From assembly GCA_012840925.1 (NCBI GenBank), contig DUVS01000045.1, positions 23,716 to 87,715 on the forward strand: a stretch of DNA of 64,000 nt. Direction: 5' to 3'. Source of the DNA: Bacillota bacterium. GTDB lineage: Bacteria; Bacillota; Limnochordia; Darwinibacteriales; DTU012. A program made the position numbers and the translations under genes. The notes below the pieces were generated by a model, which was not told where the DNA came from, made no database searches, and was given only the letters and a program-made list of their open reading frames with translations. Shown here in pieces: positions 20,615 to 63,386 of the stretch. How positions within the stretch are numbered: the first letter of the stretch is position 1; every line of letters begins with the position of its first letter.

Positions 20615-20688
20615 TGGAGCCCCTGGTAGGAATCAAACCTACGCTTGTTGCTTACGAGGCAACTGTTCTATCACTGAACTACAGGGGC
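20615..20688 (-). tRNA. tRNA-Thr (anticodon CGT), 74 nt including CCA
   Basis: Manual fold of the reverse complement: acceptor GCCCCTG/CAGGGGC, D-stem GTTC/GAAC, anticodon stem GTTGC/GCAAC with loop CTCGTAA, T-stem GTAGG/CCTAC, 3' CCA. D-loop AGTGATA and T-loop TTTGATT are non-canonical (A19 and U56). Confidence 0.7.
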
Positions 20689-23112: not shown

Positions 23113-24408
23113 GTGGTGAGCAGCCTGGCGAAGTACAGCGCACTACTGCGTTCATTTTTTGAGAATAACGCAAAAACAATCCTGAAACAGCCTAATTCAT
23201 GCCTAAAATACCCCTTTGTTGATCCTGGTTCGATTTACGATGGCAATCTCTGGGACTGGGATTCGTTTTGGGCTGTTTATGCTTTGTTTTCACTTGTGAA
23301 TACCAATGGTGATCAGCAGCTTAAGGGTCAGATAATCGAGCATGCCAAGGGCAATATCCATAACTTCTTTGATCATCAGTTAGCAGACGGCTATATTCCA
23401 ATGATGATCGAGGAATCGGATCTGCCGGAGCCTTACTTGATCATGAAGCATAAAGAAGGGGCCATTCTCAATATGATGAAACCTTTTTTATGCCATCAGA
23501 TTGCCTTGATTAGTGGTTTCTGTAATGATTTTGATTGGTACCGCGGTTATGTAGGCAACATGGAACGCTATTTTTCCTGTTATGACCACTACTACTATCC
23601 TGACAACTGTGGGTTGTATGTGTGGGCTGACGATGTGATGATTGGCATGGACAACGATCCGGCCACATTTGGACGTCCGCGGTTTTCCACAGCCAACATG
23701 TTTTTAAACAGCTTTTTGGTCAGTGAGTTCCAGGCCATGGCCTATCTGATGCACAGAATTGGACTCGACGCCCGGGCGAGTTTCTATCTGGCTAAGGCCC
23801 GAAAGCTGACCTATAGTATTCAGACCGAGTGCTGGGATGCCCGGGACAAGTTCTTCTATTCAGTCGATGTTGACGTCAAGACCAGGCCGTACGATTGGTT
23901 CCACGTAGGCCTGGGTGTGTTCTGGAAGTCACTGCCGATCAAAATCCGGACATGGACAGGATTCATTCCCTTGTGGGCTCGTTTTGCCACCGAAGAACAG
24001 GCAAGGTCCATTGTGGAGCATATCAGGGATGAACAAACCTTCAACAGCCCTTATGGGATTCGCTCTTTATCAAAGGATGAAAAAATGTATAATCTCTCGG
24101 CTACCAACAATCCATCAAATTGGCTGGGTCCAATCTGGATCATAGTCAACTATGTGGTTTTCCGCGGGCTGTTAAACTACGGCTATGTTGAAGATGCCCG
24201 CCAGCTTTACGAGAAGACCGTTATGTTGTTAGGTTCTGATTTGGAACAAAGCAGCACTCTGCATGAGTATTATGTTCCTGAAACCGGCAGCCCGGTAATG
24301 AACAGCGGATTCATCAACTGGAACATGTTGGTATTGAATATGGAAGATGAGCTGGCCGGCAGAAAATCCATGGACGATTACATCCACATTACAAAGCCAG
24401 GATCCTAA
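23113..24408 (+). CDS. (alpha/alpha)6-barrel glycosidase-like protein (GH63/GH37/MGH1-like)
   Basis: YDGNLWDWDSFW, GPIWIIVNY and EYYVPETGSPVMNSGFINWN blocks resemble six-hairpin glucosidase/trehalase-type enzymes. Confidence 0.5.
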   Translation: MVSSLAKYSALLRSFFENNAKTILKQPNSCLKYPFVDPGSIYDGNLWDWDSFWAVYALFSLVNTNGDQQLKGQIIEHAKGNIHNFFDHQLADGYIPMMIEESDLPEPYLIMKHKEGAILNMMKPFLCHQIALISGFCNDFDWYRGYVGNMERYFSCYDHYYYPDNCGLYVWADDVMIGMDNDPATFGRPRFSTANMFLNSFLVSEFQAMAYLMHRIGLDARASFYLAKARKLTYSIQTECWDARDKFFYSVDVDVKTRPYDWFHVGLGVFWKSLPIKIRTWTGFIPLWARFATEEQARSIVEHIRDEQTFNSPYGIRSLSKDEKMYNLSATNNPSNWLGPIWIIVNYVVFRGLLNYGYVEDARQLYEKTVMLLGSDLEQSSTLHEYYVPETGSPVMNSGFINWNMLVLNMEDELAGRKSMDDYIHITKPGS

Positions 24409-51851: not shown

Positions 51852-52763
51852 ATGACAGTTATTGAAATTGACAACTTGACAAAGCGGTTTGGCAGTTTGA
51901 CCGCCCTTGATGGAGTCAATCTGGAGGTTAACCAAGGCGAAATCTACGGCTTCATCGGGCCTAATGGCGCCGGCAAGACTACCACAATCAGGATATTGCT
52001 TGGTATCTTGAAAGCTACACAAGGTACTGCCAGAATTTTTGGCAGAGATGCCTGGCACGATGCTGTGGAAATTCACAGACGAATCGCTTATGTCCCAGGT
52101 GAAGTCAATCTTTGGTCAAACCTTACCGGTGGCGAAGTAATTGATCTGTTTGTCAAACTACGGGGAACGGACAACCAAGCTGATCGCATTTACCGTGAAA
52201 AATTGATCCGGCGGTTTGATCTTGACCCGTCGAAAAAATGCGGCACATATTCAAAGGGAAACCGGCAAAAGGTAGCGTTGATTGCTGCTTTTGCAGCGGA
52301 TGCTGATCTTTATATCCTCGATGAACCGACTTCCGGATTGGATCCGCTCATGGAAAGAGTATTTCAGGAATGCATTCACGAAATCAAAGAGGCTAAGAAA
52401 ACCGTGTTTTTGTCCAGTCATATTTTATCCGAGGTGGAAAAGCTCTGTGATCGGGTGAGCATTATCCGTCAAGGCAGAATTATTGAAACCGGTACGCTGC
52501 AGGAACTGAGGCATTTAACCAGGACAGTTGTACAAGTGGAAACCAGGCAGCCCATCCAGGGTTTTGCTGGGCTTACCGGGGTTCATAGTATCGAGGAATC
52601 AGAAGCAGGCCTACTGTTTGTGTACAGCTTACAAGTGGATACTGGCCAAATCGGTGAGGTGCTTAAGCTTATCAGTCAGTATGATGTTGTGTCTTTGGAA
52701 AGCAAAGCGCCTACTCTTGAGGATCTGTTTATGCATCATTATCAGGTGGCAGGTGAAGACTGA
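51852..52763 (+). CDS. ABC transporter ATP-binding protein (ABC-2 type)
   Basis: Walker A GPNGAGKTT, signature LSGGxxQ-like (YSKGNRQKV), Walker B LYILDEPTSGLD. RBS AAAGGAGG. Confidence 0.9.
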   Translation: MTVIEIDNLTKRFGSLTALDGVNLEVNQGEIYGFIGPNGAGKTTTIRILLGILKATQGTARIFGRDAWHDAVEIHRRIAYVPGEVNLWSNLTGGEVIDLFVKLRGTDNQADRIYREKLIRRFDLDPSKKCGTYSKGNRQKVALIAAFAADADLYILDEPTSGLDPLMERVFQECIHEIKEAKKTVFLSSHILSEVEKLCDRVSIIRQGRIIETGTLQELRHLTRTVVQVETRQPIQGFAGLTGVHSIEESEAGLLFVYSLQVDTGQIGEVLKLISQYDVVSLESKAPTLEDLFMHHYQVAGED

Positions 52764-54385
52764 TGCTTAAGTCGATGCCGCTGAAGAAACAGTTGTGGCA
52801 AGGCACCTCAGTTTTGGCAGGCCTGATTTGGCGCAGGGATCGGATTCGCATTCCACTATGGATTATGGGAATTGCAGTGGTAACCCTGTTGGTGGCCTAT
52901 GCCTATCCTGGGTTGTTTCCTACCGAACTTGAGCGGATGATTATGAGTGAAACCATGAGGAACCCCGCTCTGATCGCCATGGCTGGCCCGGGCTACGGCT
53001 TGGATGATTACCAGATCGGAGCCATGTTTGCCCATCACATGTTGTTGTTTACTGCGATCGCAGTGGCAATCATGAACATCATGACAGCTGTCCGGCATAC
53101 ACGGTGCGACGAAGAGAGTGGGCGTATTGAAGTGATTCGTTCCTTACCAGTGGGGAGACTGGCGAATGCCGGATCGGTGCTTCTGGTCTTAACCATTGGT
53201 AATGTAGTAATCGGTTTGGTTGTGGGTTCCGGCTTGGCTGCATTAGGTATTGAGTCGATGGGTTTGGCTGGTTCGCTCCTGTATGGTGCAGTCTTAACAG
53301 TAACCGGCTGGTTCTTTGCCGGCATTACCGTCCTGTTTGCTCAAGTGACTGAAACAAGCCGGGGAGCATTGGGGCTTGCTTTTGGTTTCATGGGGCTTGC
53401 TTATCTGCTGCGGGCAATTGGGGATGTGAGTAATGAAGTTCTTTCCCTGGTATCACCTTTAGGATTGGTCCTCCGGTGCCAAGTTTATGTCACCAACTAC
53501 TGGTGGCCAGTCTTGGTGATGGTAGCCTTATCCGCGCTCACTGGCTTTTTAGGGTGTTATCTAAACATAATTCGGGATCTGGGTGCTGGTTTGATTGCAG
53601 CCAAACCTGGGCCTACCAAAGCGGGGCGTTTGCTGCAAACCACATGGGGCTTGGCCATCCGCCTGCAGAAACCAATGCTGACCGGTTGGGCTGTTGGGAT
53701 GCTGGTTCTGGGATTGTCTTACGGCTCTGTGTTTGCTGATTTGGACCGCTTTTTTGAATCTAGTGAGATGATTAAGGGAATGCTGCCAGCCATACCAGGT
53801 TTTACGTTAACGGAGCAGTTTACAGCACTGATTCTGCTGATCATGGCGATGTTTGCAGCCATTCCCGCACTGTTAATGGTTTTGAAGCTGCGGACCGAAG
53901 AAAAGGCAGCCCGCCTTGAGCATTTGCTGGCCAGAGCAGTTTCCAAAACGAGATTACTCTACAGCTTTGTGGTTACCAGTCTGCTTGCGGCTGTGGTAAT
54001 GCAGGTACTGGCAGCGCTGGGACTGTGGGCAGCAGCTTCTTATGTAATGGAAATTCCCTTCAGTTTTTGGCCTGTGTTAAAGGGTGCACTATCCTTTCTA
54101 CCTGCCATTTGGATTTATGTTGGCATGGCGACTTTCCTAATCGGATTCCTGCCACGTTTCACGGGCTTAGTCTGGTTGTATCTGGGTTATACATTCACAG
54201 TGCTCTATCTGGGGAGGTTGGTCAAGGCGCCGGAATGGCTGGCTAAGCTGACACCCTTTGGCCACGTCCCTAATGTGCCGATAGAGACCATGGGAGTAGG
54301 ACAAGTGGCAATCATGCTGCTGATAGCCGCAGCTTTTATCGGATTAGGGCATTACCAGTTTAGTAAAAGGGATTATCAGCAGTGA
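52763..54385 (+). CDS. ABC-2 family transporter permease (12-TM exporter-type)
   Basis: 540-aa polytopic membrane protein. ATG overlaps the ATPase stop (TGATG). Confidence 0.75.
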   Translation: MLKSMPLKKQLWQGTSVLAGLIWRRDRIRIPLWIMGIAVVTLLVAYAYPGLFPTELERMIMSETMRNPALIAMAGPGYGLDDYQIGAMFAHHMLLFTAIAVAIMNIMTAVRHTRCDEESGRIEVIRSLPVGRLANAGSVLLVLTIGNVVIGLVVGSGLAALGIESMGLAGSLLYGAVLTVTGWFFAGITVLFAQVTETSRGALGLAFGFMGLAYLLRAIGDVSNEVLSLVSPLGLVLRCQVYVTNYWWPVLVMVALSALTGFLGCYLNIIRDLGAGLIAAKPGPTKAGRLLQTTWGLAIRLQKPMLTGWAVGMLVLGLSYGSVFADLDRFFESSEMIKGMLPAIPGFTLTEQFTALILLIMAMFAAIPALLMVLKLRTEEKAARLEHLLARAVSKTRLLYSFVVTSLLAAVVMQVLAALGLWAAASYVMEIPFSFWPVLKGALSFLPAIWIYVGMATFLIGFLPRFTGLVWLYLGYTFTVLYLGRLVKAPEWLAKLTPFGHVPNVPIETMGVGQVAIMLLIAAAFIGLGHYQFSKRDYQQ

Positions 54386-55858: not shown

Positions 55859-55991
55859 CAAAAGCACCCTTTACGTCAAAGTGGTCTCCTTTTCCGATGG
55901 TGTGCTTTAAGTGAGACAAGGGGCCTCGGAGGAAAAACCTATTGCACAGTTGAAATACCAATAAACAGTGTTTCATGGGAGGTTGAGATGT

Positions 55992-56285
55992 GTGAAGCGG
56001 GTAAGGATATCTAAAGCTCATGTTTTGATACTAGGAGTTATCTTCGTTTGTCTATTTTTGAGCGGCTGTATTCCGGGCGATGGCAAGCACACAGAAGAGA
56101 ATCCAGCAGGATTTTTCTGGGGAATCTGGCACGGATGGATCGCTCCAATCTCACTGATCATTGGTATATTCCGTGATGGCATTCGTGTTTATGAAACTGC
56201 AAATACCGGATTGTGGTATGATTTTGGTTTTTACATGGCCATCATCAGCGGTTTTGGCGGACTCTCACTGGCTAGGAAAAAATAA
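55992..56285 (+). CDS. small hypothetical lipoprotein/membrane protein
   Basis: GTG start 13 nt after GGGAGG gives KRVRISKAHVLILGVIFVCLFLSGC (lipobox LSGC) plus one further hydrophobic segment. Start choice is uncertain. Confidence 0.5.
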   Translation: MKRVRISKAHVLILGVIFVCLFLSGCIPGDGKHTEENPAGFFWGIWHGWIAPISLIIGIFRDGIRVYETANTGLWYDFGFYMAIISGFGGLSLARKK

Positions 56286-57280: not shown

Positions 57281-58057
57281 TCAGCAGGAGAGAAAGGGCA
57301 TATCCGGATCCAAAACCGGGAGTGCGTTGCCTAGAGAAATCTGTTTTTTAGTAATCTGGCAGCTGCGCCTGTAAAATTGAACACCTGCTCTACGGGCGGC
57401 GGTGAAGGCTTTGGCAAATCCGGGATCGATGTGGGAAGCCGCAGTGACACATTGGGCGTCACTCCGCTGAGCAACGAAGAGCACCGCTCCCTGATACTGT
57501 CCGGACTGAGTGAGTGCGGCTAATGTATCCAGATGCTGCCGTCCTCTGCTGGTGACTGCATCAGGGAACAGGCCTACACCATTGTCTACCAAAGTAACGC
57601 TTTTGATTTCTAACAGCATCTGTTTTTGGCCCCGTTGGAGAAGGAAGTCGAAGCGGTGCCTGCCGAGAGGATATTCACTGCGGACAAGCGACCAGGAGCT
57701 TAATTCCGGCATAGCTTTTTGGACAAGGGCAGTCTTAACCAATGTATTGGGTAGAGCCGAAACCAAGGAAACCAAGCTTCCATTTTCCGTTTCGGACAGG
57801 ATCGCTGACCAACGGGTTTTCCGGTTTGGATTGCTGGTAGACTGCAGCCAAATGCGTCTGTTGGGAGTTAACAGCTCACGCAACCTGCCTGGATCAGCAA
57901 GGTGGGCCTCTACTATTTGGCCTTTACATGACTTTCCACCAGTCCTATCGGTACTTCGATCGGGATCCGCTCCAGCCAGCTGACAGCGAACTATAAATCG
58001 ATTGATTCTCTGCTGAAAGTATGCTTCCACTAAGTCCCCCAAAGGCAGACTAACCAT
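57281..58057 (-). CDS. sfsA: sugar fermentation stimulation protein SfsA
   Basis: RINRFIV..., ADPGRLRELL, RFDFLL...LLEIKSVTL blocks. Start at the internal ATG (58057), which has RBS AGGAG, rather than the longer ORF. Confidence 0.75.
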   Translation of the reverse strand: MVSLPLGDLVEAYFQQRINRFIVRCQLAGADPDRSTDRTGGKSCKGQIVEAHLADPGRLRELLTPNRRIWLQSTSNPNRKTRWSAILSETENGSLVSLVSALPNTLVKTALVQKAMPELSSWSLVRSEYPLGRHRFDFLLQRGQKQMLLEIKSVTLVDNGVGLFPDAVTSRGRQHLDTLAALTQSGQYQGAVLFVAQRSDAQCVTAASHIDPGFAKAFTAARRAGVQFYRRSCQITKKQISLGNALPVLDPDMPFLSC

Positions 58058-58200
58058 GCGATATCCGCTCCTATTTATCCAACTTGCGATCAAGGAATAA
58101 CCTTTCTTGCATAGAAGTGATGTAATGATAGACTTATGTTCAACCACAAGCAGGCAAAACTATGTATTACCTGCACAATACAGAAAGGGAGGAATTGGCT

Positions 58201-59559
58201 ATGGCACTTGTTGGTGGTTTTGTCGTTCCGCATCCCCCGTTGATCATACCACAAATCGGCAAAGGCCAGGAACAGAAAATCCAAGCCACCATCGATGCAT
58301 ACCATGCAGTCAGTAAATCGATTGCCGACATCAAGCCTGACACAATTGTGATCGTAACTCCCCACTCGGTAGCATACGCAGATTACATCCACATCTCTCC
58401 TGGCAGCAGTGCCAGAGGAGATTTTAGTATGTTTGGCAGTCCCCATGTGCAGATTGATGTTGAGTACGATCAAGAGTGTGTTGGCCATCTGGAAAGCCTC
58501 AGCGAACAACAAGGCATCCCGGCAGGTACTGACGGGGAGAGGGATCCAAGGCTTGACCATGGCAGCATGATTCCCCTTTACTTTATCAATTTATATTACC
58601 ATAATTACAAAGCTGTCAGGGTTTCCATATCCGGATTGCCTCTTTTGACCCACTATCGTTTCGGGAAACTAGTGGCTCAAGCAGCAGAGGCTGCCGGTAA
58701 ACGGGTCGTGATTGTTGCCAGCGGTGATCTGTCCCATAGACTTACTGAAGATGGGCCCTATGGATTTGCCAAAGAAGGGCCGGTTTTTGATCAGAAAGTG
58801 ACTGAGGCATTGAAGGCGGGAGATTGGCAGCAGCTTTTGGGCTTCAATGAAACCTTCTGTCACTCAGCCGCAGAGTGTGGGTTAAGATCCTTTATCATAC
58901 TTGGAGGAGCGCTAGACGGCAAGGTGATCCAACCACAACTGCTCTCGTATGAGGGCCCTTTTGGAGTTGGCTACGCTGTTGCTGCTTTTCAAGTAACAGA
59001 AAATGGTAAAGGGCAGGAGCACGAGCAGGATGCAAGTGAAAGCAGTGGAGAAGATGAGTATGTGAAGCTGGCGAGAATGTCTCTGGAGCATTACGTCAGA
59101 AACCGGCGCCATCTCCCGCGGCCGGACGGGCTCAGTGAAGGACTGCTCAGGAATCGAGCTGGTGTCTTTGTGTCGCTGCATATTGGCGATCAGCTGCGGG
59201 GGTGTATGGGTACCATCGGCCCCACTACCAAGTGTGTGGCTGATGAGATCATCCGAAACGCAGTCTGCGCCGGCATGGAAGATCCCCGTTTTACTCCCGT
59301 CAGGGAGGAAGAACTGCCTCATTTGATCTACAGCGTTGAAGTCCTTGGAGAAGCTGAACCGGTACAATCAAAGGATCAGTTGGATCCAAAACGATATGGA
59401 GTGATTGTCACCGCTGGAGGAAGGCGAGGATTGCTGCTTCCGAATCTGGACGGTATCGATACTGTTGAAGAACAACTGCGGATCGCGTGTTTGAAGGCAG
59501 GTATTTCACCCCATGAGCGGTATCAGATTGACCGTTTTGAGGTGGTGCGCCATACGTGA
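58201..59559 (+). CDS. fusion protein: LigB/MEMO1-superfamily (class III extradiol-dioxygenase-like) domain + AMMECR1 domain (AmmeMemoRadiSam system A/B-like)
   Basis: N-terminal GGFVVPHPPLII...VIVASGDLSHR (LigB/MEMO-like). C-terminal AMMECR1 signature AGVFVSLHIGDQLRGCMGT. RBS AAAGGGAGG. Confidence 0.75.
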   Translation: MALVGGFVVPHPPLIIPQIGKGQEQKIQATIDAYHAVSKSIADIKPDTIVIVTPHSVAYADYIHISPGSSARGDFSMFGSPHVQIDVEYDQECVGHLESLSEQQGIPAGTDGERDPRLDHGSMIPLYFINLYYHNYKAVRVSISGLPLLTHYRFGKLVAQAAEAAGKRVVIVASGDLSHRLTEDGPYGFAKEGPVFDQKVTEALKAGDWQQLLGFNETFCHSAAECGLRSFIILGGALDGKVIQPQLLSYEGPFGVGYAVAAFQVTENGKGQEHEQDASESSGEDEYVKLARMSLEHYVRNRRHLPRPDGLSEGLLRNRAGVFVSLHIGDQLRGCMGTIGPTTKCVADEIIRNAVCAGMEDPRFTPVREEELPHLIYSVEVLGEAEPVQSKDQLDPKRYGVIVTAGGRRGLLLPNLDGIDTVEEQLRIACLKAGISPHERYQIDRFEVVRHT

Positions 59560-60386
59560 ACAAACTGGTCTGTGAGATTTGCCCTCATCACTGCCACCTG
59601 GGGCCAGATCAGGCTGGCCTGTGCCGGGCCAGGGGCAATGTGGATGGTCAAATCAAAGCTATCAACTATGGTTTGATTACATCCTTAGCCTTAGATCCAA
59701 TTGAGAAAAAACCTTTGTACCGTTTTTACCCGGGAAGCCTGATTCTGTCGATCGGCAGTTTCGGCTGCAATTTCCGCTGCCCCTTCTGCCAAAACTGGGA
59801 GATTTCAACGGCTGCCAAAGACGATCTGGGTTGGCGCCAACTGTCGCCGCAGCAAGTGGTGGAGCTGGCATTAGAACTGCGAAGCAGGGGCAATATTGGG
59901 ATTGCTTTCACCTATAACGAACCTTTGGTGGGATATGAATTTGTTTATGACTGTGCCGAGCTTGCCCATGAACACGGTTTGCAGAATGTGTTGGTAAGCA
60001 ATGGCTATTGCTGCCAAGAGCCGCTGCAGCAACTGCTGCCGCTGATCGACGCCATCAACTTTGACTTGAAAGCATTTAACGATCAGTTTTATCGCAAAAT
60101 CGGCGGTGATCTGGAGACGGTAAAGAACTCTATTACATCAGCGGTAGAATCTGCTCATGTCGAGGTCACGACTCTGATCATCCCGGGGGAAAATGACAGC
60201 GAATTGGAAATAGAGGCTCTAGCTAGCTGGCTGGCCAGTGTCAAGCGGGATCTACCTCTGCACCTTACGCGGTTCTTTCCGAGGTACAAGTGCAGTGATC
60301 GGGCTCCGACAGATATTGACGTACTGCGCAAACTTGCGGAAGTTGCCCGGACAAAGCTTGATTACGTCTATCTGGGCAACTGTTAG
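59556..60386 (+). CDS. AmmeMemoRadiSam system radical SAM enzyme
   Basis: CEICPHHCHL...GLCRAR N-terminal Cys cluster, DPIEKKPLYRFYPGS, radical-SAM CNFRCPFCQNWEIS. GTG overlaps the upstream stop (GTGA). Confidence 0.85.
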   Translation: MNKLVCEICPHHCHLGPDQAGLCRARGNVDGQIKAINYGLITSLALDPIEKKPLYRFYPGSLILSIGSFGCNFRCPFCQNWEISTAAKDDLGWRQLSPQQVVELALELRSRGNIGIAFTYNEPLVGYEFVYDCAELAHEHGLQNVLVSNGYCCQEPLQQLLPLIDAINFDLKAFNDQFYRKIGGDLETVKNSITSAVESAHVEVTTLIIPGENDSELEIEALASWLASVKRDLPLHLTRFFPRYKCSDRAPTDIDVLRKLAEVARTKLDYVYLGNC

Positions 60387-60399
60387 GGAGGTGGCTCAC

Positions 60400-61674
60400 A
60401 TGGATTCAAAACTGGTGCAGACGGCCAGGGGATTACTCACAAGACTGAGGGGCACAGCTTATGTTTTCGGAACGGATGTGCTGGGCGAAGTTGGGCCCAC
60501 CGCTGCTGAACTAGGCAAGAATGCATTGGTTGTGGGGAATACCACCCATACAAAAAGTATTCTGCATCGAGTAATTCAAAGCCTATATACCAACGGGCTG
60601 CTGGTCAATTCAACCTTGGGAGCCAGGCCAAACACACCCATCGAGGATGTTTACCGGATAGCCAGTAAAATTCAGAATAGCAGACCTGATCTGATTGTGG
60701 CAGTAGGTGGAGGCAGTACCATTGACGCAGTCAAAGCCGCAGTGGCTGTTGCTTGCCTTGGGGGAGAAGTTGAACGCTTTTTTGGCACCGGATTGGTTGG
60801 TGAGGCGCTTAAGGGGGCAGGCAGCAGCTTGATCCCGATTGTCGCAGTACCGACGATCGCTGGTTCAGGCGCTCATCTGACGAAATACGCCAATGTAACG
60901 GATCTGGCCCGAGCCCAGAAGAAGCTGATTGTGGATGAGGTATTGGTACCGGCGAGATCTGTATTTGATTACGATGTGACCTTGACCGCTGCACTGGATA
61001 TTACCGTTGATGGAATCCTGGATGGGATGAGCCATCTTGTGGAAGTGTTCTTCGGGACTGGCGCAGCAAATTCAGATCAATATTCGATGGTTGAACAGCT
61101 GGTTAAAACAGGTGTACCGCTGATAGTCAAGGCCGCAGGGAGAGTGCTGGCCAACCCTGATGACCGGGTAGGCCGGGCCGCGATCGGGCTGGCAACCGAC
61201 CTTGGAGCTTGTGCAATCATGATTGGCGGTACTAACGGCCCCCATTTGAACAGTTTTTCGCTAGTGGATGTCGCCAGTCACGGCCGGGCCTGTGGTATAC
61301 TCAATCCCTACTACGCAGTCCTATTTGCGTCAGCGATTGAACCTCAGCTGCAGGTGCTTGGCAGGATTTACGCTGAATATGGGCTTATTCTGGAAGATCT
61401 TGGGACACTGGCCGGGCGGGATTTGGCATTGGCAGTGGCCAGAGGTATGCAGCGCTTTATGCAAAGTCTTGGCGTACCGGTTTCCTTAAAGGAGCTGCCA
61501 GGCTTCGGTGAAAATCATCTGGAGCGGATCCTGACCGCGGCTAAAGATTCACAGCTGCGGATGAAATTGAAGAATATGCCAGTCCCAATTACGCCTCGTC
61601 TAGTTGATGACACCATTGGATCTGTATTGAAAGCGGCCTATGCAGGTGATCTCAGACTGGTTCACAGTCTTTAG
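60400..61674 (+). CDS. iron-containing alcohol dehydrogenase family protein
   Basis: GGGSTIDAVKA dinucleotide motif and Fe-ADH fold-like length (424 aa). ATG 60400 is 7 nt after GGGAGGTGG. The longer ORF from 60238 overlaps the radical-SAM gene. Confidence 0.8.
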   Translation: MDSKLVQTARGLLTRLRGTAYVFGTDVLGEVGPTAAELGKNALVVGNTTHTKSILHRVIQSLYTNGLLVNSTLGARPNTPIEDVYRIASKIQNSRPDLIVAVGGGSTIDAVKAAVAVACLGGEVERFFGTGLVGEALKGAGSSLIPIVAVPTIAGSGAHLTKYANVTDLARAQKKLIVDEVLVPARSVFDYDVTLTAALDITVDGILDGMSHLVEVFFGTGAANSDQYSMVEQLVKTGVPLIVKAAGRVLANPDDRVGRAAIGLATDLGACAIMIGGTNGPHLNSFSLVDVASHGRACGILNPYYAVLFASAIEPQLQVLGRIYAEYGLILEDLGTLAGRDLALAVARGMQRFMQSLGVPVSLKELPGFGENHLERILTAAKDSQLRMKLKNMPVPITPRLVDDTIGSVLKAAYAGDLRLVHSL

Positions 61675-61766
61675 GGCTTGCCGATATGCCTGCACCGGAG
61701 CGTTAGGCAGGCCCCAGGCTAAAGCAGTATCGAGAATTGCTGATTATGGACTTTGGTCTGGTCAGG

Positions 61767-61775
61767 TGTTATAAT
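61767..61775 (+). promoter_or_regulatory. extended -10 promoter TGtTATAAT upstream of the MATE gene
   Basis: Perfect TATAAT with TG at -15/-14. No good -35. Confidence 0.45.
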
Positions 61776-61826
61776 ATATTATAAAAGAAGTTATCTTAGA
61801 ATATTATTTTGAAGGACATGGATAGA

Positions 61827-63386
61827 ATGGAACTTAATCAGAAGGAGCTTGATCCTCTAGGAGTTGAAAGTCTCAGTAAGGATCAACAGGATACTGTCAT
61901 TGAAAACGAAGTTGGGCCTCAGGTAGGCGAAAGTGAGCAAGCGACGCCGGGCAAGCAGATCAAGCTGGCTTTGGATTTGGTTGCTCGAGGCGATGATACA
62001 AACGACTATGGCAAGTACAGCAGGGTAAGCAAGCAGCTGCCCCAGGGCGTTACTTCCAGAATGCTGTATAAAGACGTGGTCCGGATTGCCTGGCCGTCTT
62101 TTATTGAGTTTACCCTGACGCAGCTGACATCGATGGTAGATATGATGATGGTTGGACAGCTTGGGCCGTGGGCGATCGCCTCAGTAGGCTTGACAGTTCA
62201 GCCGAAGTTCTTAATGGCAACCATGTTTATGGCCATGAATGTGGGGGCGACAGCTTTGATTGCCCGGGCGAAAGGTGCAGGTGATCAAGAGAGGGCAAAC
62301 CGGGTACTGCGCCAGGCAATTCTGCTTACAGCAATCTTTTCGGCGATAGCAGCAGTTTTTGGCTATTTAAATTCAGAAACAATGATTAAATTTATGGGTG
62401 CTGCTGACGAGCAAACTTTAGCGGGCGGCACTATTTATTTGAAAATCCAGATGGCTGGTTTGGTGTTTTTTGCACTGACCAGTACTTTTACAGCCGCACT
62501 CCGGGGCGTTGGCAATTCTCGGATTGCCATGACCTATAACTTGATTTCAAATGTGGTCAATGTCGTGTTTAACTATTGTCTGATATACGGCAAGTTTGGT
62601 TTTCCAAGGTGGGAGGTAGCAGGAGCTTCGTTGGCAACAGCGATTGGACAAACGGCAGCATTTGTAATGGCCTTAATCGTTGTCCTTCGCGGCAGGCATT
62701 ATGTCCATCTGCAGCTTCGGGCGGGCTTCAAACCTGATTTCAAGCTGATTAAAAGTATCGTCAACATTGGATTTCCGGCTATGATTGAGCAGTTGCTGAT
62801 GCGGGCCGGTGCCATAATGTACGTCAAGACGGTAGCATCCTTGGGAACTGTGGCTTATGCCACCCACCAGATTGGGATGAACATCCAGGCGTTATCATTC
62901 ATGAACGGTCAGGCATTTGCTGTATCGGCCACCTCGCTGGTGGGGCAGAGCCTAGGCAAAAAAAGGCCTGATATGGCTCAGGCATACGCCAGGCGGACCA
63001 GGCTGTTGGGAATGATGGTCTCGATCTTCTTGGGAATAACCTTTTTCTTCTTTGGCAGGCGGATTGTCTCCTGGTACACCAAAGACACTGAAGTTATTGC
63101 TATGGGAGCCCAGATTTTGAAGCTGGTGGCGTTGATACAGCCGTTCCAGTCTTCTCAGTTTATTCTGGCTGGTGCTTTGCGCGGTGCCGGTGATACGCGA
63201 GCAATTGCTGTGATCATATTCATTACAGTGCTTCTGGTAAGGCCAAGTTTGGCAGTGATCAATATCAATGTGTTCCACTGGGGCCTGATGGGTGCCTGGC
63301 TCGCTTTGGTAACTGATCAGATTTTACGTTCAACCTTAGTGCTGCTTAGGTACAACTCCGGTAAATGGAAGAGTATCCGAGTTTAG
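61827..63386 (+). CDS. MATE family efflux transporter with about 80-aa acidic N-terminal extension
   Basis: 12-TM MATE core (IAWPSFIEFTLTQLTSMVDMMMVGQLG...). The start is ambiguous: TTG 61809, ATG 61818, ATG 61827 or internal ATG 62061. Confidence 0.75.
   Translation: MELNQKELDPLGVESLSKDQQDTVIENEVGPQVGESEQATPGKQIKLALDLVARGDDTNDYGKYSRVSKQLPQGVTSRMLYKDVVRIAWPSFIEFTLTQLTSMVDMMMVGQLGPWAIASVGLTVQPKFLMATMFMAMNVGATALIARAKGAGDQERANRVLRQAILLTAIFSAIAAVFGYLNSETMIKFMGAADEQTLAGGTIYLKIQMAGLVFFALTSTFTAALRGVGNSRIAMTYNLISNVVNVVFNYCLIYGKFGFPRWEVAGASLATAIGQTAAFVMALIVVLRGRHYVHLQLRAGFKPDFKLIKSIVNIGFPAMIEQLLMRAGAIMYVKTVASLGTVAYATHQIGMNIQALSFMNGQAFAVSATSLVGQSLGKKRPDMAQAYARRTRLLGMMVSIFLGITFFFFGRRIVSWYTKDTEVIAMGAQILKLVALIQPFQSSQFILAGALRGAGDTRAIAVIIFITVLLVRPSLAVININVFHWGLMGAWLALVTDQILRSTLVLLRYNSGKWKSIRV

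Follow-up and report, generated by a model that had tools for sequence, protein, structure and literature searches.

A two-gene AmmeMemoRadiSam module encoding a fused LigB-type and AMMECR1 protein, with a clade-limited alcohol dehydrogenase neighbour, in a Bacillota bacterium

The gene cluster and its products

The subject of this analysis is a group of three co-oriented genes in a 64,000-nucleotide (nt) stretch of DNA from a Bacillota bacterium (GTDB lineage Bacteria; Bacillota; Limnochordia; Darwinibacteriales; DTU012), which corresponds to positions 23,716 to 87,715 of the forward strand of contig DUVS01000045.1 (assembly GCA_012840925.1). The whole stretch is referred to as the window, and coordinates are counted from its first nucleotide unless another locus is named. 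The genes encode a fusion of a LigB-type domain with an AMMECR1 domain (fusAB), a radical S-adenosylmethionine (SAM) enzyme (rSAM) and an iron-type alcohol dehydrogenase (ADH), with the first two assigned to the AmmeMemoRadiSam system. A preliminary description of this DNA had placed the three genes correctly (Table 1). The motifs that it quoted (LRGCMGT in fusAB, DPIEKKPL and CNFRCPFCQNWEIS in rSAM) were all found in the translations, and the GTGA overlap and the 13-nt spacer before ADH were confirmed. The trio is already carried by NCBI under the consecutive accessions HHX02567-HHX02569, from a Bacillota metagenome-assembled genome, where the proteins are named AmmeMemoRadiSam protein A (fusAB, HHX02567.1), radical SAM enzyme and iron-type alcohol dehydrogenase. 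It was seen again on independent metagenome contigs, so its arrangement is not a matter of chance.

The longest open reading frame (ORF) of fusAB begins at 58162, with relatives aligning from residue 1 of the start at 58201. The spacing of −4 nt between fusAB and rSAM is the modal one, present in 23 of 56 related loci; the stop/start overlap of the preliminary description is thus real and typical of the family. Owing to this overlap, the two proteins are probably made together and work as a complex. It is also probable that ADH is co-transcribed with them here. A signal scan gave no terminator-like site in the spacer between rSAM and ADH, and none after ADH. The site at 61747-61775 is the best promoter-like match in the region. 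Its position ahead of the MATE transporter gene suggests, as far as the DNA can be read, that the unit of fusAB, rSAM and ADH ends before that gene. An Rfam search of the window for riboswitches and other RNA elements gave only one tRNA (20618-20688).

Table 1. Coordinates of the features in and around the fusAB, rSAM and ADH genes, in window positions
Feature	Coordinates	Strand	Basis or remark
Shine–Dalgarno-like GGGAGG	58187..58192	+	8 nt 5' of the fusAB ATG; direct sequence reading
fusAB, 452-residue LigB-type and AMMECR1 fusion	58201..59559	+	ORF list, Pfam, NCBIfam
N-terminal LigB/class III extradiol-dioxygenase-like domain, residues 7-260	58219..58980	+	PF02900
Interdomain linker of fusAB, residues 268-282	59002..59046	+	Predicted local distance difference test (pLDDT) <50; alignment gap
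C-terminal AMMECR1 domain, residues 288-449	59062..59547	+	PF01871, TIGR04335, PDB matches
GAGGTGG 5' of the rSAM start	59539-59545	+	Sequence reading
GTGA, rSAM start over fusAB stop	59556..59559	+	GTG 59556-59558, TGA 59557-59559
AmmeMemoRadiSam radical SAM enzyme, short form, 276 residues	59556..60386	+	TIGR04337
rSAM four-Cys motif C6, C9, C13, C23	59571-59624	+	N-terminal
rSAM CX3CX2C motif C71, C75, C78	59766-59789	+	Radical SAM core
rSAM-ADH spacer, 13 nt, with Shine–Dalgarno-like GGGAGGTGG	60387..60399	+	After rSAM TAG 60384-60386
Iron-type alcohol dehydrogenase, 424 residues, ATG 60400	60400..61674	+	PF00465
Promoter-like TGGACT-17-TATAAT with upstream TG, 5' of the MATE gene	61747..61775	+	Consensus scan only
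MATE transporter gene	61809-63386		Promoter-like site ahead of it

The assignment to the AmmeMemoRadiSam system was upheld by curated models. The protein A model TIGR04335 scores 124.5 bits on fusAB residues 286-448 (cutoff 99), and TIGR04337 scores 265.6 bits on rSAM (cutoff 220). The joining of an A domain to a domain of the LigB/MEMO1 superfamily, as previously described, was likewise borne out by Pfam. LigB (PF02900) reaches 142.1 bits against a cutoff of 26.3 and covers profile positions 3-268 of 269, and AMMECR1 (PF01871) reaches 146 bits. The identification of the N-terminal domain as component B holds for superfamily and role, but the protein B model TIGR04336 is borderline (27.0 bits, cutoff 26), and Pfam Memo (PF01875), with 19.7 bits, stays under its cutoff of 27. 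HpaD, with 63.6 bits, is far from its cutoff of 316, and other dioxygenase equivalogs are lower still.

In an alignment of 67 sequences, the invariant N-terminal residues are H11, H55, H120, H179, E225 and C226, so the full class III extradiol set (H11, H55, H120, H179, E225), with His/His/Glu as metal ligands and a further pair of catalytic His, is kept. E225 aligns to a Glu of DHPAO (8iq8) in the PDB sequence match, and the His and Glu residues are presumably, by motif position, the equivalents of those in LigB and MhpB. Within the AMMECR1 domain, R333, G334, C335, G337, D361, R363 and F364 are invariant in the same alignment. They lie in the motifs LRGCMG (333-337) and DPRF (361-364), with R333-G337 and D361-F364 matching RGChG and DxRa, the AMMECR1 active-site motifs defined by Balaji and Aravind in 2007 (PMC2034487).

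An AlphaFold2 model of fusAB built from the 67 sequences has a mean pLDDT of 89.2 and a predicted template modelling score (pTM) of 0.70. The linker is predicted to be disordered and is 12-25 residues shorter than that of most relatives. By sequence, the N-terminal domain has its PDB relatives in DHPAO (8iq8), the aminophenol dioxygenases and TK2203 (5hee); MEMO1 chains do not appear at E≤0.01 in the PDB sequence search with fusAB. By fold, the best match is TK2203, with a template modelling (TM) score of 0.84, and class III extradiol dioxygenases come next. MEMO1 is far behind (TM 0.53-0.58, Foldseek E of about 5e-9). The C-terminal domain matches the archaeal AMMECR1 structures 1zq7 and 1vaj. 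Judged by its sequence and modelled fold, the N-terminal domain is therefore nearer to the class III extradiol dioxygenases, TK2203 in particular, than to MEMO1. It is not a canonical Memo-type B component, and "A and B fused" is right for the superfamily and the role.

The rSAM match covers positions 11-285 of the 349 in TIGR04337. The relatives of rSAM have a median length of 277 residues, so the short form is normal. Both cysteine motifs are fully conserved among relatives: C6, C9, C13 and C23 in 57/57, and C71, C75 and C78 in 60/60. The sole PDB relative is PflA (3c8f), and the closest models outside the enzyme's own family are those of the glycyl-radical-enzyme activases PflA, YjjW and NrdG. 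As a separate observation, the rSAM partners of fused proteins are uniformly of the short form, and so the C-terminal part of the TIGR04337 model appears to belong to another branch of the family.

Distribution of the fusion and its neighbourhood

The fusion, which the preliminary description had singled out as a possible handle, is not a special architecture. In a protein collection of 5.8 billion, 7,999 of the 8,000 candidates scored reach E≤1e-10 against fusAB. The best 120 clusters at 90% identity, which were inspected, are all LigB plus AMMECR1 proteins of 435-489 residues with 99-100% coverage, and many are labelled "AmmeMemoRadiSam system protein A" or "A/B". In a library at 50% identity, E≤1e-30 is reached by 1,074 representatives; of the top 150, nearly all give one match over the full length. 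A GTDB species survey gave at least 600 pattern matches, with fusAB relatives encoded by 594 of the first 600. The best 80 loci were kept, the window's own clade lying outside these 80, and each of them (80/80) carries a full-length fusion. Their hosts include Lachnospiraceae, Oscillospiraceae, Christensenellales, Peptococcaceae, Tissierellia, Coriobacteriia, Treponema and others. Across hundreds of clusters, the conserved fusion and its pairing with rSAM are found mostly in anaerobes.

The arrangement also has a published record. In 2007, Balaji and Aravind (PMC2034487) had already placed genes for a radical SAM enzyme and a ring-opening dioxygenase in the neighbourhood of AMMECR1, and they described fusions of AMMECR1 to such a dioxygenase. 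The fusion of a LigB-type domain with AMMECR1 is thus the common, dominant bacterial form, already known and annotated, and does not distinguish this locus.

Full-length fusions with 50-58% identity also occur in assemblies that are not labelled as Bacillota. These include Parasutterella muris DSM 111000 (L071), a member of the Deferribacteraceae (L055), Coriobacteriia (L003, L008 and L018) and Treponema (L079 and L080). Either horizontal movement of the cassette or contaminated bins or assemblies could account for them.

Across the best 80 species loci, tblastn places rSAM next to fusAB in about 70, and an ADH of the window's type within 6 kilobases (kb) in none (0/80). Clustering of the ORFs in these loci found only fusAB and rSAM to be conserved; no other family exceeds 13 loci, and the next one is in part an artefact of antisense ORFs. 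As this census takes antisense ORFs in some loci of high G+C content, its count for fusAB is 71 of the 80 loci, against 80 of 80 by tblastn. The 101 genes that immediately flank the fusAB-rSAM pair fall into 127 Pfam families of at most four members each, and iron-type ADH is not among the 25 commonest of these families. No aromatic-catabolic genes were found around the pair: meta-cleavage pathway genes are absent both from the window flanks, which encode SfsA, a 2-hydroxyacid dehydrogenase and the MATE transporter, and from the 101 flanking proteins of other species. Neither tblastn of the window nor domain hidden Markov models run on the flanks of related loci gave a separate Memo-type or AMMECR1 paralogue. 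Since only fusAB and rSAM recur, the flanks vary and there are no separate copies of the domains, the pair is a self-contained two-gene module in varied, mostly housekeeping surroundings.

The alcohol dehydrogenase and its clade

The iron-type ADH scores 113.2 bits with PF00465 (cutoff 31.3). None of the characterised ADH equivalogs is reached (FucO, ErcA, PsrA, daptide dehydrogenase and others), the best being ErcA at 96.3 bits against 550. Among ADH relatives, the GGGS motif (G103-S106), D208, H212, H282 and H294 are invariant; the Asp, the three His and the GGGS align with residues of methanol dehydrogenase 8zrl. Because these metal and cofactor residues are intact, ADH is probably an active dehydrogenase.

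A reverse survey was seeded with ADH and covered 80 metagenome loci at 46-59% identity. Only one of these (L100) has fusAB or rSAM nearby, and it belongs to the window's own clade; outside the clade, the system lies near 0 of 79 ADH orthologues. The commonest neighbours there (L101-L179) are a split transketolase (20/79) and a LarA-like Lar_N protein (20/79), followed by a UxaE-like epimerase (8), a transaldolase-like protein (7), SDR, GntR and TctC. For the ADH subfamily outside the clade, these neighbours indicate carbohydrate or sugar-acid catabolism. In its own right, this subfamily of about 425 residues looks like part of an uncharacterised sugar or sugar-acid pathway.

Within the clade, whose members are named Limnochordia and Candidatus Wallacebacter, seven of nine lineages have ADH at a distance of 0-3 kb downstream of rSAM, and the other two lack it. 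It follows rSAM directly in L085, L090-L095 and L180 (fusAB 75-78% and ADH 69-70% identical to those of the window). In six sister lineages the spacer is 17-18 nt and carries GGGAGG or AGGAGG. A contig that begins inside rSAM (L181, ADH 54%) also has ADH directly next, followed by DUF2752 and double-zinc-ribbon (DZR) genes on the opposite strand. An opposite-strand peroxiredoxin gene comes between rSAM and ADH in L096-L098 and L100 (fusAB 70-71%, ADH 59%). About 3 kb of other genes precede ADH in L099 (fusAB 60%, ADH 54%), which is without the MATE gene. The two lineages that lack ADH, L086 and L087 (fusAB 64-67%), have opposite-strand peroxiredoxin and DZR genes, with DUF2752 on the same strand as these in L086 only. 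The slot between rSAM and MATE was seen to vary in the clade (L086 10273-11845, L087 10187-11243, L096 6265-6810, L181 1674-2588), its contents being combinations of the opposite-strand peroxiredoxin, the DUF2752 protein, the DZR protein and ADH.

The clade ADHs share a deletion of 3-4 residues that other orthologues do not have, which points to a single origin of the link. The genes for the 2-hydroxyacid dehydrogenase, SfsA, MATE and a PRK-like protein hold their order in the clade equally well, so the linkage of ADH is indistinguishable from plain synteny; L099 gives the one hint beyond it. On the simplest reading, ADH was captured once next to rSAM in the ancestor of this Limnochordia-like clade, and was then inherited vertically with later insertions and losses. 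The idea that the adjacency of rSAM and ADH is recent, arising through loss of the peroxiredoxin gene, was dropped, given that L181 is directly adjacent at 54% ADH identity. Direct adjacency is instead probably ancestral to the clade. The linkage set out in the preliminary description stands for seven of nine Limnochordia-like lineages. It fails among the best species loci and the orthologues outside the clade, where the refuting outcome named in that description, lack of the ADH linkage in related genomes, is what was observed. ADH is not a conserved component of the AmmeMemoRadiSam system.

Several observations concern other genes upstream. The SfsA gene (57281-58147, minus strand) lies upstream of fusAB and is divergent from it. 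Within the N-terminal OB domain of its product, about 15 residues (AGADPDRSTDRTGGKSCKGQ) are inserted that relatives of 241-258 residues do not have. A sister contig (L081) encodes identical fusAB, rSAM and ADH proteins and has a 1-nt indel near window position 57890; there, SfsA is called as two pieces of 164 and 62 residues (L081 9082-9857). This may reflect either decay of the SfsA gene or a difference between the assemblies. Just 5' of the 2-hydroxyacid dehydrogenase gene is a small ORF with hydrophobic stretches (55968-56285, plus strand). It is conserved across the clade, is called at 90-98 residues in relatives and has no Pfam match on record. A 540-residue polytopic membrane protein (52763-54385, plus strand), also with no Pfam match on record, follows an ABC ATPase in sister contigs and is probably an unannotated ABC-2-type permease.

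Proposed function and comparison with known systems

The reading judged most probable, at roughly 75%, is that the locus holds an ordinary Bacillota-type two-gene AmmeMemoRadiSam module acting by the mechanism that follows, with ADH outside the conserved system. The [4Fe-4S] cluster of the rSAM CX3CX2C motif, together with SAM, would give rise to a 5'-deoxyadenosyl radical, and a second metal centre may be bound at the conserved four-Cys site near the N-terminus. The hydrogen atom taken by this radical would come either from a substrate held in the cleft of AMMECR1 or from the invariant LRGCxG loop itself. The invariant Cys335 could function as a nucleophile or a radical relay. The LigB-type domain, through its His/His/Glu residues and two more His, would carry out a metal-dependent step on the same substrate. 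In view of the varied housekeeping surroundings, it is proposed that the module carries out a housekeeping modification on its own, its target being, for instance, a nucleotide or an RNA base. A modification of such a base was proposed by Aravind and colleagues (PMC2034487), and AMMECR1 has been placed among the top uncharacterised archaeal families by Makarova and colleagues in 2019 (PMC6393860). In line with the preliminary description, a search of the accessible literature for biochemical work on AmmeMemoRadiSam returned only passing mentions and human genetics, and no characterisation of the system. A 2019 study by Burroughs et al. in the Journal of Biological Chemistry reportedly classifies the PCAD-Memo superfamily with its AMMECR1 and radical SAM contexts, and its abstract is said to propose a nucleotide-base or isoprenoid modification.

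Certain points weigh against this reading. Every biochemical step in it is inferred, and the packing of the fusAB domains is only moderately confident at the pTM of the model. The LigB-type residues look O2-dependent, which is odd beside an O2-labile radical SAM enzyme in anaerobes. The remaining points concern ADH. The spacer between rSAM and ADH measures 13-18 nt and contains a ribosome-binding site in the window and the six sister lineages; the link holds down to 54% ADH identity; and in L099 ADH is still within 3 kb of rSAM though all other flanking synteny is lost.

These same observations lend some force to the suggestion that the clade ADH is a true extra component, acting in the oxidation or reduction of an alcohol or aldehyde group that the system's substrate or product carries. 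Such a role would explain why ADH is retained in the same transcription unit. In its favour are the short spacers with a ribosome-binding site, the persistence of the link down to 60% fusAB identity as well, and its retention in L099 next to otherwise different flanking genes. The clade ADHs also form a distinct group, whose deletion and change to GPHLNSFSL from GAHLTSFSL might mean a new specificity. Nonetheless, the link has a single evolutionary origin and is thus inseparable from inherited synteny, in which the 2-hydroxyacid dehydrogenase, SfsA, MATE and PRK-like genes are kept equally well. Opposite-strand genes stand between rSAM and ADH in L096 and L099, and the L086 and L087 lineages keep fusAB-rSAM without ADH. 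Together with the absence of ADH from all 80 best loci of other species, the absence of the system near all 79 orthologues outside the clade, and the presence of the subfamily in sugar-catabolic clusters elsewhere, this makes an extra component unlikely. A related proposal, that the AmmeMemoRadiSam operon of one Limnochordia-like clade took in a diverged iron-type ADH that now works with the system, is slightly less likely again. Were it true, the substrate or product of the system would bear an alcohol or aldehyde group, and the clade would offer a tractable three-protein set for reconstitution.

Two further alternatives concern the module itself. In the one, rSAM would be a PflA-like activase that modifies the LRGCxG loop of fusAB, leaving a stable glycyl or thiyl radical or another post-translational modification, and fusAB would be the radical enzyme instead of carrying the substrate. 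The kinship of rSAM with the PflA, YjjW and NrdG activases, both in its nearest non-family models and in its only PDB relatives, speaks for this, as do the invariant G334, C335 and G337. The strict 1:1 pairing of the genes and their translational overlap are as expected of an enzyme and its activase. This possibility is nevertheless doubtful, though the least so of the alternatives: the AMMECR1 fold, built from two RAGNYA domains, has no kinship with the ten-stranded barrel seen in glycyl radical enzymes (PMC2034487), the four-Cys motif at the N-terminus of rSAM is not a feature of PflA, and no sign of a protein radical came out of the present analysis. In the other, the N-terminal domain would be an ordinary catabolic, ring-cleaving extradiol dioxygenase with an incidental AMMECR1 fusion. 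The strong LigB match (142 bits), the intact His/His/Glu and His/His set and the closeness of DHPAO and the aminophenol dioxygenases in the PDB would agree with this. Set against them are the HpaD score, which is far from its cutoff, with no equivalog approached, the lack of meta-cleavage genes both here and among the 101 flanking proteins elsewhere, and the conservation of the fusion and the rSAM pairing over hundreds of clusters, mostly in anaerobes. An ordinary catabolic dioxygenase is accordingly very improbable.

The chemistry of AMMECR1, Memo and the radical SAM enzyme matters beyond bacteria through its ties to the human disease genes AMMECR1 and MEMO1. The present locus adds little to it, as the fused form is widespread and has been on record since 2007, and the ADH link is a single clade-level event. 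The preliminary description had offered the fused architecture and the ADH as a handle on the chemistry; little is gained in this respect, with ADH linked in one narrow clade only. The useful outcome is a negative one, namely that ADH should not be taken as a general clue to the pathway.

Compared with known systems, the window ADH resembles the subfamily of about 425 residues found in Spirochaetota, Bacillota and Atribacterota. Full-length identity is 46-54%, and the GGGS, the Asp and the three His are the same. It differs in that the members of the clade next to rSAM have the deletion and altered motifs, and that the window has none of the split transketolase, LarA-like and UxaE-like neighbours. 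The rSAM shares the CX3CX2C core with PflA (3c8f), but the similarity is low (33 bits), the window enzyme has the extra conserved four-Cys motif, and it is without a glycyl radical enzyme partner.

The N-terminal domain has the superfamily fold of MEMO1 (3bcz, 7kq8), the eukaryotic counterpart of component B. The match is much weaker in fold, Pfam Memo is below its cutoff, and the window domain has E225 followed by the invariant C226. Memo uses a Cys at this site. With the class III extradiol dioxygenases (DHPAO 8iq8, aminophenol dioxygenase 8ihg/3vsg, DesB, LigAB 1bou) the domain shares its conserved metal-ligand and acid-base positions. It departs from them in its fusion to AMMECR1, in its rSAM partner and in the lack of a catabolic context; most hosts of the fusion are anaerobes, and no dioxygenase equivalog is reached. 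TK2203 of Thermococcus kodakarensis, the best fold match, has about 20% identity.

In its relation to the AmmeMemoRadiSam system (TIGR04335/TIGR04336/TIGR04337), the locus is unlike the three-gene form in having two genes, in filling the B role with a LigB-type domain that is barely at the TIGR04336 cutoff, and in its short rSAM. It is like the system in that A and rSAM are above curated cutoffs and their genes are adjacent and co-oriented, and NCBI and JGI use the same names for the window protein and its relatives. The closest likeness is to the fused LigB-AMMECR1 proteins of about 461 residues from Clostridia and other anaerobes, such as that of Caproiciproducens faecalis (P0056). The linker of the window protein is shorter, and those genomes lack the downstream ADH. 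The full-length architecture is the same at 50-60% identity, with the same invariant residues and the same rSAM directly downstream.

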